A stretch of 62,161 nucleotides of DNA, counting the filler, from Rhabdomonas costata (taxonomy: Eukaryota), in assembly GCA_019059605.1 (NCBI GenBank). It is 24 parts of 24 records of this genome, joined end to end, with 100 filler letters (N's around TTAATTAATTAA, not from the genome) between each part and the next. Parts side by side here need not be neighbours in the genome. Positions count along the whole stretch, not along the records: positions 54,482 to 56,974 come from JAHMHO010003162.1; 23 more parts are not named here. One strand, given 5' to 3'. Both the position numbers and the translations under genes were made by a program. Positions 25,955 to 59,859 of the stretch are shown here, one piece after another. Under the pieces are notes generated by a model. It did not search any database and was not told where the DNA came from. It saw only the letters and a list, made by a program, of their open reading frames with translations. Numbering within the stretch: position 1 is the first letter of the stretch; every line of letters starts with the position of its first letter.

Positions 25955-28441
25955 NGGGTTTTGTGGTTCACGAAACTATGCGCTATTTATACTCTACATC
26001 TTGCATCGCATTCCACTCTTTTTTCCAATCTTCACCTGGATCCATCACTCCGTACGTAAATATGAGCTTGAATGCCAAATCGCTTTATATATGTAGATAG
26101 TGGTGGTTGTGGAAACTTTCTTGTGTACACGTTGCTCGCAACTCCTCAAAACACTGTACATGTATGACTTAGACGTGGATTGATTCTTTGTACCTGAAAA
26201 TTTGTTACCGCAGACTGCGGCTGGAGTTTTTTCTCGGTAACGCCTTTATTCATCATTGAATGCTTTTTCAACGCGGTTTAGTTGTCGTGGATTCTCTGGA
26301 AAAACTCGGTGTGGATGTGATTGGTTTCGCCATTGCCACGTCACATGCTGCGGAGTATTTGCCGCTACTATCTCACCCTTTCATTACTTCAGATGTCTCA
26401 TGATATATTCAACTAATGGGATATGTGGATGTGGTTTGGTTACAGAGTGCACGTATTTCACCCATCTTTTTGTGTCGTGAAGATTAAAGCGACAATATAT
26501 GGCAATAATATTTTTAACCAGAACATCATTCAGCAAAGACTATAATTGAACATCCACATCAAAACTTCCATCACATATGTCAACCAGGCAGTATATTTCA
26601 GTATTGTTGGAACTGAACTAATAGCATTAATCTCTGCACTTATGAGGGCACAATGTCTCACTTATTAATCTTCTGTAACGCTGCAAACATCTCAACTCTC
26701 CGCGTTTTTACAATACACACCAATTTTGACTTCATTAATTTCTGTATTTCCTTTGTACTTGGTTGAATTCTTTACCACCTTTTGAAATACAGCATTCAAA
26801 TTTGAATAACTACTTTACAAATTTTTTCACCTCTGTAGCTATATGCACGGATCACTCAATGAACTTTTCATAACCGTTATATCTTTGGGTTCGGACAAAC
26901 TTCAGAGCATGTTACTGTTAATTAAGGTTGTTGCTACACCATCAACTATGGACTTGTCAACACTTATGTACTTTAACACTCACTCAAGTCTATGAAACGG
27001 AACTAGAATACACTCCGTAGCTTGGTCGCGGATCTTCACAAAAACAACGCACGCTGTGGAATCTCACACAACAAACGCTGTTGAGCTTCAACACCACGTG
27101 AATCTAATCTTTTACGGCTTCTCATGGTGATAGGCTCGCTAATGGCTGTGCATTTGGAACAACACGGTGGTATTTCTGTATAAGTTGAAAGAGTAAAAAC
27201 CCATTCTACCCATCTTCTTCTTACTTCTTCACGTTTTTCTTAGCTCAGGAAACTTAAAACAAAGTCAAAAACCACAGGACAAATAAAAAAGTCTCGTCTA
27301 CTTCCAAGCTCACAAAACACTCAACTCCACATATCCACTTCTGAATAACCCACTATAACCTCCTGTGTTAAAATTTACTGACTTCACTTCATCCATATTT
27401 TTTTACAACCACACAGGAAAACACTATATTTACTGTGGATCCGAGACACAATTTCACATTCCATTTTTTAGAGTGGTGGTTACTCTCGAGGTTCCACTCA
27501 AAACAAGAGAGCAAAATGGGACGTCGTCAGTCACAAGAAACCGAAAAACTGATTGCACTCAGTAAAAAACACTACATTTCCTGTGGATCCTAGAAAAACG
27601 TTCCCATTCCATCTCTGGAATATGATTTTCAGCTCTTTCACAAAATGACACAATGGGCTTCAAGTAACTCTGATGTCCCCAAAAGCATTCGATATTTTTC
27701 CACAAATGCCTAAGCCAAAGCATTCGAAATTATTATTCTCTATGGTGTGTTAGCGTAAAGGCGCACATCTTGGCTCCATTTGTAAGCAAGCTCATTGCAG
27801 CCAATTGTCACCCCATCAATATTGTATACTGAAAATTACCTCGGCAGCTAATGGTACAATTCAGAGTGGTACAGTTCAGATTGGTACAGTTCAAAATCGT
27901 AGGTAACGTCACTACATCTACCTTTGGCGCAAAATATTGACGCACATTAGTTCCTGCAATGTTGAGTAACATTGCATCTCCACACATATCATCTGGAGAG
28001 TTCTTCTCATGTAAATAATACTCAAAGTTGACTCAAGGAGTGTCAATAGACCACTCTGATGGCCACTATTAACAAAATGCACTGAAATTATGTCCACATT
28101 ATCCTACAACGGCAGGTGTTCTACCCAAGCTCCGGCTTCGAAAGTAACTTCAACAGCTTGCATCTCCATACAGAACGTACGCCATGTTTAAGTACTTTTT
28201 CTTCCGCAATTTGTTTGTAGTCATGCCATTCTGCTTCTGACACATCCACACTTAATTCCTAATTGCACTAGACTGCTACGTTTATGCATCTACAACCTCT
28301 TTATCTTCTGGAAGCTCTTCGTCATCAAACACTTTTTCTTAAGCTTGAAGGTTGCAGATTGTATTACTCTAGTATGGCAGCAACATCCAACGTTCTGGGA
28401 TCAGATGTCATATTTCACACTGATAACTCTGCACCAACCCC
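25955..28441 (-). other. AT-rich, intron-less, decayed ORF-like region (possible viral or large-TE relic)
   Basis: Composition differs from the host gene contigs. Minus-strand frames read as protein-like text broken by isolated stops. Confidence 0.4.
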
Positions 28442-54381: not shown

Positions 54382-54499
54382 NNNNNNNNNNNNNNNNNNN
54401 NNNNNNNNNNNNNNNNNNNNNNNNNTTAATTAATTAANNNNNNNNNNNNNNNNNNNNNNNNNNNNNNNNNNNNNNNNNNNNTGTTGGTTGGTTGACTCC

Positions 54500-56770
54500 T
54501 ACGAAGACAAAGAAGAGCTGAAATGATTGCCTTATGAAATCATGAAAACAAATGCGGTCCCAAATACTGTATAAATATAGCGTGCCGCTCTCACACGGCG
54601 TTTCTCGTGCATGACGTTCACACGCTCATGCCTCTGATGATCGCCATTCAGAAAGACATAAAAAATGTGATGATGACTTACAACCTGAAGCTGAGGCTGA
54701 CGGGAAAATCTTGTTTGCACACTTTGGCACTTTAATATAGCGCGGATAAGAGCGTCTTAGGCAAATACTTTCAAGCCATCGTTGTTACACAAATTCCATG
54801 CCACTGATAGTCAGCATAAAGAGAATATTTTTTATTCCAATGCCAGGATCTCAATTATTCACAAAATACTTTAACAGCTTTAATTTGCTGCTGGTGGAGG
54901 TGGTGTTTGGAAGAAAATGTTGTGGAAGTTGGTCTCGATTAGCAATTGGCACAGTTCTGCATCCGCCTCTGGAAGTGGGAACTCCGCATGTCCTGCCCTA
55001 GTGTCGGTGGGTTGTGGTGACCACCTGGGCTTCTGTTCTCTCCGCGCTGCTGCTTCTGCTGATGACACTGGACATAAATGGTATTTGGGACGATTCGGAT
55101 ACACAGGAGGTGGAAACAGGTGGTGGATAACTTGCGCTTTTGACTGCTTCTCCAGATGTACAATTCCATCCCCTTGGCATGAAACACTAGTTAAAAAGAA
55201 AGAAAGATGAAATTTTCTCGTAACTGCGGAGCGTTGTGAGTCGCGGAACCATATAATTATCGTGTTGAAATACATCACATACTTTCTTCTGAGTTTTTTG
55301 GTGTAACTGTTCTTATATTAAATCTATGACTGCCATTGTAAATGTAGAATTTAAGCAAAGACATGAAGGCCAGCGACGCCTTCCAGTAAAAGATTTTGGG
55401 CATCATGTGTGCTAAACCCGTGTCCTTGAGGTCTTTTTGTCGAATCCCAGAATGTCCTGTAAGCAAATCGTGTCGAATAAAAGGGCACTCAGTATACTAT
55501 GGGGCTTTGTCATGGAACTGCCTCCCAAATGGTTTGTAACCACTTTTATTGGCACATCTCACGTCATTTTGACTCAAAACTGCCCAGACTGCTGGCAAGA
55601 CGGAAATTGCCGCAAAAGGCCTTGATAACACCACATTGGAAATCAGTGTACCCTTGCACGAAGCAAAATGACCAGTAGTATCGAAATGAAGAGCAAATGA
55701 CACCGCGAAAACAAAATTGATTCAATTAACTGACCGTGTTGGCATATGAGCTGCAAATGCATTACCACAAATGGCGAACGGCGACCACTTGCTGAATCGA
55801 AGTGTGGCACATTACCCATTATGAGACAGTGTCCCGGGTGTAGGCGCCTCAACGTGCCATTGTTCTACACAAAGATTGCTTCCAGTACTTTCAATCTCTG
55901 AAACCAACACTACCCTGCTACTGAAAGCGAGGACTTGTCAAGCACCTTGCCCACAAAGTACCACGGAGGATTTGCAAAATAATTTGGTCCTTTCTCGGTG
56001 GTAGTTGAAAGCGTTGTTATAATCTGTACCCAGGTCTCCAGGATCATCCGAATAGCACCTGCTCAATTGGTAATGTTTTAGTCTCGCAAACATCCCACTT
56101 GATGAAACATGTCAACGCAATTGCAGATTACGAGAAACACAACATCAAATGCTCCTCAATTCCAAAGCTTGGATGCGTCTCATGGCCTTGGAACGGCACT
56201 TCTAAACAAGAATGCGCTCTCCAACTTAAAGTGGACTAAACCGCTGTGCATGCTGCTCAACTTCGCTATAGAGTACCAATCCCATGCATTGTTTTAAAAC
56301 TGGAAGTTGAGTTGCCTCTTGCGGTGGTTATGGTTGTAACTTAAGCACAGTTACCTCCCGATTTAAACGGACCACATTGTGGGTATGTTTCGATTGCTTT
56401 TTTATCCTCTCAGTATTAGATCACTTAAATAAATACACCACAAATGTTTCATCCTCATTAACTGCATTGGTATGGATAATTTATGTGGAGAAAAATGAGT
56501 TGCTAGGAGAAGGCACGACTTTAGCAGATCACATATTGCTGCTGTTCGTGAAACCACGTCCACTAGCGGCCATTCTGCATCAGGTATGTCAATGGCACTG
56601 CAGCACAGGCGTAGTTTGTCACGAACATCTGATAGAACCCACAGAGGCCCAGAAATCTCGTGACTACTGTGACATTTTTTTGTCACTGACCAATGTCTGC
56701 TGACGAGAAGCTTCTGTGGTTTTGTATGATTCCAGCTCTTTCGAGTATAAACCATCAGTATTAGACCTCT
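54500..56770 (-). mobile_element. Decayed Ty3/Gypsy LTR-retrotransposon pol (RT thumb, RNase H, N6-MTase-like domain, integrase remnants)
   Basis: KNVTVVTRFLGLCGFYQMFVTNYACAAVPLTYLM...WTW..EQQ (56670-56540); MFARLKHYQLSRCYS...NAF / YFANPPWYFVGKVLDK...WFQRL (56095-55880); CH...GGH...NCANC and ISGMEFV (55070-54788). Many stops and frameshifts. Confidence 0.78.
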
Positions 56771-57074
56771 GGAGGCGCCCACGTGCACGTCTCGTGTCTA
56801 CTTGTACACCAGTGTCAGCTTGCTGATGTGTCGGTATTACACTACCATCCTCAGCTTCCAGCGGCGCACGTGAGTGTGGGTATGACTTCCTGGTTTCGCT
56901 GATCGTGGTCGGGGTTTGGTTTCGGTGTTCTGTCCTTCCGCTTAGGTTGTGCGAAAGGACAGAAAACCCACACANNNNNNNNNNNNNNNNNNNNNNNNNN
57001 NNNNNNNNNNNNNNNNNNTTAATTAATTAANNNNNNNNNNNNNNNNNNNNNNNNNNNNNNNNNNNNNNNNNNNN

Positions 57075-57260
57075 GGTTAGGAAGCGATGCACGTGCCCCC
57101 TAGATCACGATATTTCATCTCGCATGGGGTTAGGAAGCGATGCACGTGCCCCCTAGATCAGGATATTTCATCTCGCATGGGGTTAGGAAGCGATGCACGT
57201 GCCCCCTAGATCAGGATATTTCGTCTCGCATGGGGTTTGGAGGCGATGCACGTGTCCCCT
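57075..57260 (+). repeat. 53-bp minisatellite, 3.5 copies, running off the contig start
   Basis: Unit GGTTAGGAAGCGATGCACGTGCCCCCTAGATCAGGATATTTCATCTCGCATGG at 57075, 57128, 57181 and partial at 57234. Confidence 0.95.
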
Positions 57261-57558
57261 AAAAAAAGGTACACTGCTGAAGGTATGCTATTATTCAAAC
57301 AGGGTAGAAAAGGGACCTCGCAAATCACTGCAAATTAATTAGCCATGATGGAAATAAGAGAGGCCCTGCTTGGCGGGCAAGTTAACGGTTACTGAGTGTA
57401 ATCATTTTTTCGGTTTGTTGTTTCACTGAGGACGTTTCTTTTTGCGGTTGCTGGAGGGAAAGTGAAAGGCTGGAACCGCAACCACCGAAAGGTAAGACCA
57501 AGTTTATCTGCGCGAGCGCGGCTGTCCCTGCGAGGCGCTTGCTCGGCTGTGCCCACAC

Positions 57559-58825
57559 CTGACCCTCGGAGCACCGCAGCCCAGCCACTCTGCCATTGCC
57601 ATCCAAGCGAATCGTCTGAGCCGACCGCCGGAGGACATACGTCCCTGCAATGCAGCAGAAGCAGGAAGGAAACCTCAAAATGGTTGGGCAAGGGGGCAAA
57701 AAGTTCTGACGTCTCTGAAAAGTGTTCAGAGTGTTTGGGTTGGGTGCAATGGAGCAAATTGCTTCCCACCTCTTATGATTCCGGGAAAAGAAATACAGTA
57801 CACATTTTGCACAGCTTTCTCATCTCCTCGAAGCGGCAGGTGGAAAGCAGAGTCCTCCTGCACAACAGATTCCGTGGGGGATTTCAGCAAGGCCAAATTT
57901 GACCGCGAAACTTCAAATGCAAAGATATATGTACTCAGGCAACGTCGTCGTTTTAATGTTCAAGAATGTTGTTTTGAAATTCTTGCGAAACAACACCTCA
58001 TCTGCTGCCCACCACAACAGCACAAAGCATGAACGATCTCCCTCCCAGATATGCATAGGATACCGCCGTACACTGCCGAGACGCGGCAGAAGACCTGCGG
58101 CACCTCCGCGACGCCGTAGCAATTGTACAGAAAAGCCGTATCCCCGAACCGTCCCACCGATGCAAGGTACATCTGAGGAAGCAAGGCACCAGGAAAATAA
58201 TAACAAAAAAACCTTAACATAATGACCTTATCAGGCTGGGAGGCAAGCACACACAGTTAACTGGGAAGGTGTCAAGAAAGCGGTGCCACATCAAACGTTT
58301 CCGAAAAATGCACCCCATGCCGCTCTCAAGACCTTCGCACATCAAATTCCAAACGAATGAAAAACACAAGAGGACATAAACCTTCAGGTTGTTCACAGCC
58401 TGCCCAGTAGAGAGCCCGTACTGCGCAGGGAGGGGGTGCAGGGCCAAGGCGTGGGCGACAAACTCCACGAGGTCCTCACCCAGCCCTTTTTTTTTGAAGG
58501 GGGGGGGGGACGGAATATGCAGAGATCGTGTGCGCATTCCCGCGCCAACAAAATCACCGAAGGCGGCAACTTCGGATAGCCCACATGATGTGGCGTGTAG
58601 CATAGGCCCCTACTCCCTTAGCCTCTGCCAACAGGGTTAAAACGATGCAGTCGCAAACACAACATCTGATGGCTGACACTGCTTGCAACAAAAAGGCAAA
58701 TATCTCTCCCACCCCATTTCAAGAACCTTTGGATTGCAAAAAGGTCGCGAAGGGCTTCTCTTGCTCTTCTTTAGACAGCGCGAGCTCATCTGACATCACC
58801 TGCTTCATCAGAGCCATCAGCTGAC
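57559..58825 (-). CDS. Rab escort protein (REP/CHM/MRS6; GDI superfamily), internal exons 58825-58727, 58485-58382, 58172-58064, 57644-57559
   Basis: EKPFATFLQSKGLGEDLVEFVAHALAL...MYLASVGRFGDTAFLYNCYGVAEVPQVFCRVSAVYGGTYVLR. FCR rather than FAR favours REP over GDI. Confidence 0.88.
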
Positions 58826-59147
58826 CTACAACCCCACACCTCCATTGTGACCATCACATGCCCTCCATGCGGAACAGAAAACAGAGAAACAAACACCGAA
58901 GCCCAATGTTGAATCGCACACTGTTGCCACCCAGCAGCAGGAAAAATACACAGCGCAATTCAGTCAGCAGCAATCCCTACCTTCATACTGTGCTTGCTCA
59001 CCAGTCAGTCCGGGTTTTCTGGACCAATTGATGACCCTGCGCCCTCTTCTTACTCTGCACTTGTGTGTATGCGCTCTCCGCTGTTAGTGATGCTGGACAG
59101 AGCATGAGACACTGCAGCTTCGAAGTCAATGACTTTAAACTTTCGGG

Positions 59148-59222
59148 GAGCACAGCACAACACAGCACAGCACAGCACAGCACAGCACAGCACAGCACAG
59201 CACAGCACAGCACAGCACAGCA
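59148..59222 (+). repeat. (CAGCA)n microsatellite
   Basis: Tandem pentamers. Confidence 0.95.
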
Positions 59223-59859
59223 CACACAAACACACACTTGGTGCACTTGGCAAGGGTGAATTTCCCCCCTGGGTTCCCACCTTTCGATGGGGCATGGGCC
59301 CATAGAGCCTCACACCCTTGTCGGCCCATGGTACCTTGTCCCGTTGTCTTGTCATGTAGGGTTGTCTTACATATGATCCCTGATCCACAGTGTAGGCGGG
59401 GCCTTAGGAACCCCGATTGGCGCTTCTAGAGATCTCTTTGTGGGTACCCAACCTTCCGCGTTCGTGCGCTTCCCCTTGGCCCGAATGCCCTTGCGGGGTT
59501 TGGGTCCTCAATCCCACTCCCAGCTTGGACCCGCTTTCCTGGTGGACGGGGATCATATGTAAAACAACNNNNNNNNNNNNNNNNNNNNNNNNNNNNNNNN
59601 NNNNNNNNNNNNTTAATTAATTAANNNNNNNNNNNNNNNNNNNNNNNNNNNNNNNNNNNNNNNNNNNNCAGCAGAATGGGAAAGGGTGCTGGGAGGAAAG
59701 CGGATGCGCACACGCATGCACACAGAATAAAGAAGAAAAGAGAATGACGATTATGGAAGTGGAGAAGCGGAATTTTCCGGATCAGAAAGGAGGAGACCAC
59801 AGATCAAAGCTCGAGATCTGGAATACCCATTTTCAATGCTTCTTTTGTCGTTTGCAAAG

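Follow-up and report, generated by a model that had tools for sequence, protein, structure and literature searches.

Ty3/Gypsy retrotransposons that carry a Dam domain derived from DIRS elements were described as DAM-LTRs (LTR, long terminal repeat) in a May 2026 bioRxiv preprint by Fernandez-Moreno et al. (10.64898/2026.05.21.726589). Here we analyze a locus of Rhabdomonas costata (assembly GCA_019059605.1) that pairs the same two components: a contig at positions 54482 to 56974 (JAHMHO010003162.1) of a 62,161-base stretch of DNA, the whole of which we call the window. On the minus strand of this contig are remnants of a Gypsy-type reverse transcriptase (RT) and of a DIRS-type Dam-like methyltransferase (MT). 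Judging from the sequence, we conclude with moderate confidence that the contig is a dead, incomplete Ty3/Gypsy element with a DIRS-derived adenine methylase, in which the MT stands behind RT and RNase H.

In the preprint, 10,030 eukaryotic proteins with a Dam domain are counted, most of them from retrotransposons, and five lineages of DAM-LTRs are described, one of which has the Dam domain between RT and integrase. Eukaryotic Dam domains align to only part of the prokaryotic enzyme and have an NPP catalytic motif with an aromatic residue. Dam-bearing elements are richer in N6-methyladenine (6mA) and, in ichthyosporeans, are more transcribed; Dam domains expressed in E. coli gave no 6mA (10.64898/2026.05.21.726589). 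The authors claim the first report of a Dam domain in LTR elements other than DIRS, and our literature search found no further paper on Dam domains in such elements, nor any paper with the DIRS MT motif printed in its text. For DIRS1-like elements, PMC3266345 gives a pol composed of RT, RNase H, and MT, with the tyrosine recombinase in an overlapping open reading frame (ORF) and with the function of the MT unknown.

The window locus resembles the DAM-LTRs in that it pairs a Gypsy-type RT with a DIRS-type Dam-like MT on one strand and has the NPP-aromatic motif, and the lineage whose Dam domain lies between RT and integrase has the very order that was proposed for this locus in an earlier reading of its sequence (the original prediction). 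It differs in being a dead fragment whose contig has no integrase, LTR, gag, or protease, and the two are compared by description only. With DIRS1-like and PAT-like elements the locus shares the MT family (positions 38 to 89 of an alignment of 26 domains) and the succession of RT, gap, and MT; it differs from them in that the C terminus of its RT is of Gypsy type and no tyrosine recombinase follows its MT. The original prediction had left open whether the lineage was already catalogued. The class is: the combination of Gypsy and Dam-like MT is already in print, and the window copy likely fits that kind, whether within one of the five described lineages or beside them.

A Gypsy-type reverse transcriptase remnant

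The window consists of 24 unlinked contigs of 2,486 to 2,497 bases each, separated by spacers of 44 N's, a 12-base linker with stops in all frames, and another 44 N's, so that features on either side of a spacer cannot safely be read together. The RT and MT remnants both lie within the single contig 54482 to 56974 (2,493 bases; GC content, 0.444), which, given this length and its unlinked neighbors, comes without flank, LTR, gag, or protease context. Its longest open frame is 145 codons, and its six frames have 24 to 46 stops each (24, 43, and 28 in the minus frames). A composition profile and repeat scans of the contig show neither a visible junction nor an LTR-like repeat, the sole direct repeat being a 16-base pair. 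For the profile and protein searches, minus frames were translated with X at stops, and profile searches of the window covered 144 frames (24 contigs, six frames). The features found on the contig are listed in Table 1. All of the peptide strings quoted in the original prediction are present on the minus strand where it had placed them, with NPPW at 55972 to 55961.

Table 1. Coordinates of the features on contig 54482 to 56974
Feature	Positions	Strand	Basis or remark
Ty3/Gypsy-type RT, C-terminal part and thumb	56536..56814	-	phmmer, tblastn, Gypsy RT profiles
Unrecognized gap at the place of RNase H	56103..56535	-	433 bases (144 codons); no significant homology in any frame
N-terminal part of DIRS-type Dam-like MT domain	56007..56102	-	Frame -3; N-part profiles
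MT catalytic-pocket motif (NPPW at 55961-55972)	55934..55990	-	Frame -1; degenerate pattern, profile, read-through
Region without recognizable coding remnant	54482..55933	-	1.45 kb downstream of the MT motif

The RT remnant occupies residues 54 to 146 of frame -2 and is interrupted by 4 in-frame stops. When frame -2 was compared by phmmer with 1.84 billion representative proteins, 582 matches had an E value of ≤1e-3 and 5 had an E value of ≤1e-10 (best, 6.4e-14), and all of them cover query residues ~57 to 185. Pfam scans of the five top matches found RVT_1 and RT_RNaseH_2 in all five and rve and Integrase_H2C2 in three, with neither Dam nor Phage_integrase in any. The relatives examined were the best 150 of the 582 matches. 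Gypsy-type integrase is present in 64 of these 150, among them 62 of the 82 relatives of 600 or more residues, and DIRS-type tyrosine recombinase is present in none. The 10 closest RT relatives come mostly from short environmental contigs. In tblastn with the same 150 relatives, every strong match lies inside 56464 to 56814 on the minus strand, and only one match outside the RT region, to a low-complexity stretch of the plus strand, falls below an E value of 0.005. A local Gypsy RT profile made from 82 relatives aligns with the remnant, without gaps, over profile positions 118 to 210 at 76.4 bits (E value, 1.8e-23), and a profile restricted to the C-terminal part of the Gypsy RT gives 74.7 bits. 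These searches bear out the Gypsy-type RT thumb and connection of the original prediction, and they carry the homology past the upper limit given there (56700) to 56814. At that position the homology begins abruptly; the remaining 160 bases to the contig end have no RT palm detectable with the Gypsy profile.

The ORFs of 57 MT-bearing metagenome loci (see below), most of which are DIRS-like, score at most 11.0 bits on the Gypsy RT C-terminal profile, compared with 74.7 bits for the RT remnant, and direct comparison of the window RT frame with these ORFs gave negative scores only. Based on these profile scores, taken over the C-terminal 93 residues, the RT remnant is of Ty3/Gypsy type and not of DIRS type. 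This bears on the explanation that the contig is an ordinary element of DIRS order, with RT, RNase H, and MT plus a tyrosine recombinase, whose RT merely looks Gypsy-like. The succession RT-RNase H-MT is indeed the pol order of DIRS elements according to PMC3266345, and the contig has no integrase. However, the wide separation of the RT scores makes this explanation very improbable, as do three further observations: a DIRS thumb/RNase H profile has no match on the minus frames of the contig; no tyrosine recombinase was found on the contig with Pfam Phage_integrase or with a 23-sequence DIRS tyrosine recombinase profile (best score, -0.7 bits); and neither a tyrosine recombinase nor an MT occurs in any of the best 150 RT relatives. 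An RT that grouped with DIRS, followed downstream by a tyrosine recombinase, had been named in the original prediction as grounds for abandoning it; the RT scores and the lack of a downstream recombinase point the other way.

Identity of the methyltransferase remnant

The MT remnant extends over 55934 to 56102 and is divided by a frameshift near 56005 to 56007, in agreement with the frameshift that had been proposed. Its N part, in frame -3, sits in a stop-free frame of 57 codons (55941 to 56111), and its motif, in frame -1, consists of the NPP triplet and then an aromatic residue. From the 15 residues around NPPW we derived, by back-translation, a degenerate DNA pattern of ~40 bits, loosened where the consensus given in the original prediction allowed. 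This pattern has one match in the window and none in 100 shuffles. It also matched 57 metagenome contigs, where by a rough estimate ~1 to 2 would be expected by chance, and it has no match in 2.9 million viral contigs.

The metagenome matches are homogeneous. A signature of the MT family is found upstream of the pattern in 48 of the 50 ORFs that reach far enough and a second signature is found downstream in 50 of 53, and, as judged by these sequence signatures, all 57 loci carry one MT family. Pfam scans of four long pol ORFs found RVT_1 in three, RT_RNaseH in three, and Dam (PF05869) in all four at 22.7 to 40.8 bits; two of the four overlapping second ORFs have Phage_integrase. Dam was found in each of the six pol ORFs scanned (E values, ≤0.005). 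According to local profiles, an ORF for a tyrosine recombinase overlaps or follows the end of pol in 42 of the 57 loci. With Dam and tyrosine recombinase together in these loci, the proposal that the motif pattern marks the Dam-like MT of DIRS-type elements is borne out at the sequence level.

Because the comparison loci were picked by the motif, the score of the motif alone on the window MT (14.2 bits) is by construction. N-part profiles that drew solely on residues upstream of the motif were run over the complete set of 144 frames, with every HMMER filter switched off. A general N-part profile made from 26 sequences matches residues 294 to 325 of frame -3 at 1.4 bits, which is rank 2 of 144; rank 1 is another MT remnant, on another contig of the window. 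An N-part profile of a seven-member subgroup, which includes two metagenome loci described below (L053 and L054), places the window MT at rank 1 of 144 with 6.3 bits (E value, 0.016; residues 291 to 324), followed by the second MT remnant (6.0 bits) and then by a frame with 1.4 bits. In a simulation of 2,000 contigs with the same dinucleotide makeup, six frames each, 3 contigs reached 6.3 bits with the subgroup profile and 84 reached 1.4 bits with the general profile. Moreover, the match falls in the zone just before the motif on the same strand, which comprises ~180 of the 4,980 residues, so that the chance of a match at the required place is roughly 5e-5 for the subgroup profile and roughly 2e-3 for the general profile. 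Since the subgroup was selected after the sequences had been inspected, the figure for the general profile is the safer one. When the N part and the motif are read through with X at the break, the resulting sequence scores 32.2 bits against the 26 eukaryotic DIRS-type MT domains, in a continuous alignment over positions 38 to 89. Based on the N-part scores, the read-through, and the 57 loci of the same family, the NPPW segment is by sequence a remnant of a DIRS-type Dam-like MT, as the original prediction had it.

A second decayed DIRS-type MT remnant, the one that ranks beside the window MT in the N-part searches, lies at 27731 to 27877 on the minus strand of contig 25956 to 28441, which is the most AT-rich contig of the window (GC content, 0.393). 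In-frame stops interrupt it, its catalytic triplet is degraded, and it scores 13.6 bits (E value, 3.2e-4 over 144 frames) or, as an excised segment, 19.3 to 24.4 bits. No RT, integrase, or recombinase profile matches this contig. The presence of two MT remnants in 60 kb suggests that methylase-bearing retroelements are abundant in this genome.

The standard searches miss the window MT. On the three minus frames of its contig, Pfam (including Dam PF05869), PHROGs, and NCBIfam return nothing relevant at E values of ≤10, which leaves the remnant below the curated cutoff of PF05869 (28.1 bits). With a profile of 17 phage Dam genes, namely, that of phage T1 (confirmed by PF05869 at 237 bits) and 16 others, the minus frames of the contig are not among the 25 best of the 144 frames, and the window MT reaches 2.8 to 3.4 bits at most (3.3 to 3.4 bits on the read-through with X at the frameshift). 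Word-based protein searches with the MT N part and with the RT/RNase H stretch against proteins of 456 to 1453 residues gave no match at E values of ≤10, nor did a word-based search for fusions with phage T1 Dam against longer proteins. An ESM Atlas search with the 57-residue MT frame gave no usable match, and a search of the genome contigs with phage T1 Dam confirmed no relatives. The window MT thus has the NPP-aromatic motif in common with the phage and bacterial Dam enzymes but reaches neither PF05869 nor the phage profile.

Taken alone, these failures amount to the lack of an MTase profile hit, an outcome that the original prediction had said would count against it; the profile of eukaryotic DIRS-type MTs is the one that does hit. 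They could also be taken to mean that the MT resemblance is due to chance and that only the Gypsy RT fragment is real. The missing matches to Pfam Dam, PHROGs, and NCBIfam, the low score with the phage profile even on the read-through, and the empty word-based and Atlas searches would all fit. However, the pol ORFs of six relatives score only 17.0 to 40.8 bits on PF05869 (E values, 2.5e-10 to 0.005), and one of the six is above the cutoff. Intact DIRS-type MTs that reach only 17 to 41 bits explain why Pfam fails on a split and decayed copy. In addition, the N-part profiles, which are independent of the motif, find the remnant where it was predicted, and the read-through score is 32.2 bits. We regard the chance explanation as close to refuted. 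Decayed DIRS-type methylases are thus invisible to standard domain scans, and even intact ones tend to lie at or below the Pfam Dam cutoff.

One element or two

The stops in the RT, the frameshifted MT, and the lack of any surviving open frame mean that this copy is dead, as the original prediction had stated. From their strand, order, and spacing we infer that both remnants stood in the same pol and were separated by an RNase H that has since decayed: they lie on the same strand, they follow the order of pol, and the gap between them has the length of an RNase H. Furthermore, the lone Gypsy RT remnant in 60 kb adjoins one of only two MT remnants. If the two were independent, we estimate that chance placement within a zone of 300 bases would have a probability of ~0.5%, or somewhat more if dead elements cluster. 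Natural fusions of a Gypsy integrase with a DIRS-type MT in one open frame do exist, in the loci L053 and L054.

Several results weigh against a single element in which the MT follows RT and RNase H. At the place of RNase H, in 56103 to 56535, no RNase H was found with Pfam RT_RNaseH or RT_RNaseH_2 or with local Gypsy-type and DIRS-type profiles. The string MKHLWCIYL, which had been taken for a weak RNase H remnant, has no match to any of these profiles; it is another frame of the same DNA as the tail of the alignment with one RT relative (P0029), which runs to residue 200 of frame -2 merely as the tail of the thumb match. No integrase was found on the contig with Pfam Integrase_H2C2 or rve, with a 97-sequence integrase profile, or by tblastn with the best 150 relatives. 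The 97-sequence profile was made from the RT relatives and gives >200 bits on four control loci; no target frame is among its 10 best, all below -3.3 bits. The missing integrase contrasts with the RT piece, which still scores 76 bits; the integrase may have been lost or may be situated beyond the contig. Downstream of the MT, Pfam, PHROGs, and NCBIfam find no relevant family at E values of ≤10 in 1.45 kb, and tblastn with the best 150 Gypsy relatives gives nothing below an E value of 0.07 on the minus strand. The strings that had been read as an integrase in this region, namely, an HHCC motif (~54940 to 55070) and ISGMEFV (~54790 to 54810), therefore find no support in Pfam, the 97-sequence profile, or tblastn.

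The MT remnant is itself confined to an island of ~170 bases. With the profiles used, neither the upstream block (positions 1 to 37) nor the downstream C part was detected; the C-part profile has no match on the target, and the WFQRL string that had been assigned to the MT is not upheld. Identity of the window MT N part to integrase-linked and recombinase-linked MTs alike is 25 to 33%, which does not resolve a subgroup. No MT is found among the best 150 RT relatives. In the metagenome loci the MT is preceded immediately by a DIRS-type thumb/RNase H in 47 of 57 cases (local profiles) and directly by a Gypsy-type RT C terminus in none. There is no second copy of the element among the window contigs: comparison of contig 54482 to 56974 with the other 23 contigs by blastn and tblastx gave no match. 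Finally, short-read contigs of repeats can be chimeric.

Much of this would be accounted for if fragments of two unrelated dead elements, one an ordinary Gypsy and the other DIRS-like or of another MT-bearing kind, had come to adjoin each other by nested insertion, by deletion, or in a chimeric contig. The recognizable homology is indeed limited to two short islands, with 433 unrecognizable bases between them and nothing recognizable beyond, and the neighbors of the MT in the 57 loci are of the DIRS kind. MT-bearing elements seem dense here, with 2 remnants in 60 kb, and the preprint itself cautions about nested insertions and assembly artifacts in one species (10.64898/2026.05.21.726589). In contrast, the strand, the order, and the RNase H-sized gap are as they would be if derived from one pol, an arrangement that independent elements would produce by chance with the low probability given above, and no tyrosine recombinase follows the window MT, compared with 42 of the 57 DIRS-like loci. 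Weighing these, we consider two adjoining elements somewhat unlikely.

L053 (604 to 3288, minus strand) and L054 (2 to 2263, plus strand) have Integrase_H2C2, rve, SH3_Tf2-1, and then Dam (PF05869) in one open frame, which in L054 additionally includes the end of RT_RNaseH. Between integrase and MT both have a DIRS-type thumb/RNase H-like stretch (58 to 73 bits), and in L054 the MT is followed by an 87-bit match to the profile of the DIRS recombinase ORF. They look like Gypsy elements that have captured a whole DIRS RNase H-MT module. Like the window locus, they combine Gypsy (with a Tf2-like integrase) and a DIRS-type MT, and it is their subgroup that gives the best N-part score in the window. 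Unlike the layout that we favor, theirs has the integrase before the MT, in the order RNase H, integrase, SH3, DIRS-type RNase H-like stretch, and MT, whereas the space from RT to MT in the window is too short to hold an integrase; this too counts against our reading.

The contig could also descend by deletion from a Gypsy element whose order was RT-RNase H-integrase-MT; with the integrase and most of the RNase H lost, the MT would be the last domain of pol, and LTR and flank would come after it. The one-frame fusions in L053 and L054, the higher score of the window N part with their subgroup profile (6.3 versus 1.4 bits), and the absence of a coding remnant downstream of the window MT are all consistent with this. 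However, such a derivative requires the loss of ~1.6 kb that happens to leave a gap of the size of RNase H, and the DIRS-type RNase H-like stretch of L053 and L054 is undetected in the window. Nor does identity assign the window MT to their subgroup, and pairwise phmmer comparison of the L053 and L054 ORFs with the window frames gave weak motif-level matches only. We consider this derivation quite improbable.

If the contig is, as we think, a single Ty3/Gypsy element with a DIRS-derived methylase, then the original prediction of an integrase-encoding LTR lineage with its own 6mA methylase stands in part: the Gypsy RT and the DIRS-type MT lie on one strand, the integrase is absent from the contig, and their union in one element is the interpretation given above. 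In that case either the MT is the last domain of pol, or the element is truncated or rearranged behind the MT. The fragment could also stand for a further, independently assembled DAM-LTR lineage whose pol ends with the MT directly after a Gypsy RNase H and lacks an integrase behind it, in a host that lies outside the species of the preprint and whose genome is unusually dense in methylase-bearing elements, with two remnants in 60 kb of random small contigs; on present evidence we regard this as unlikely.

By analogy with the model of the preprint, an intact relative would use its element-encoded methylase to place 6mA on the reverse-transcribed copy or on the new insertion; AMT1 of the host would take over its maintenance, and the marked insertion would stay in transcriptionally permissive chromatin. 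The window copy itself is capable of none of these steps. If the contig holds a single element, then a Gypsy lineage with an adenine methylase taken over from DIRS elements was once present in this genome, which would add a case to the proposed capture of methylases by retrotransposons that exploit 6mA-marked permissive chromatin. A dead copy says nothing about function, and its value is as a pointer to further copies. The assembly probably holds many more of these, some of them perhaps intact, from which the order of the domains and the relation to the published lineages could be settled.

Other features of the window

On the same contig, a 13-base tandem repeat (1.9 copies) at 55103 to 55127 lies in a GC-rich, purine-skewed stretch, and this stretch is the reason for the only tblastn matches with E values below 0.01 outside the RT region, all on the plus strand. 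The next contig (57075 to 59568) has repeats of two kinds. At its start, at 57081 to 57342 on the plus strand, overlapping frames reiterate a near-identical 42-residue peptide every 53 bases, a sign of a tandem repeat of that period. At ~59135 to 59260, a short, microsatellite-like repeat run is translated, in several frames of both strands, into serially repeated peptides of five residues. Between them, at ~57875 to 58172 on the plus strand (frame +1, residues 267 to 366), the palm part of the Gypsy RT profile gives a match of borderline strength (5.5 bits; E value, 0.09 over 144 frames), which may be a second decayed RT or may be due to chance.

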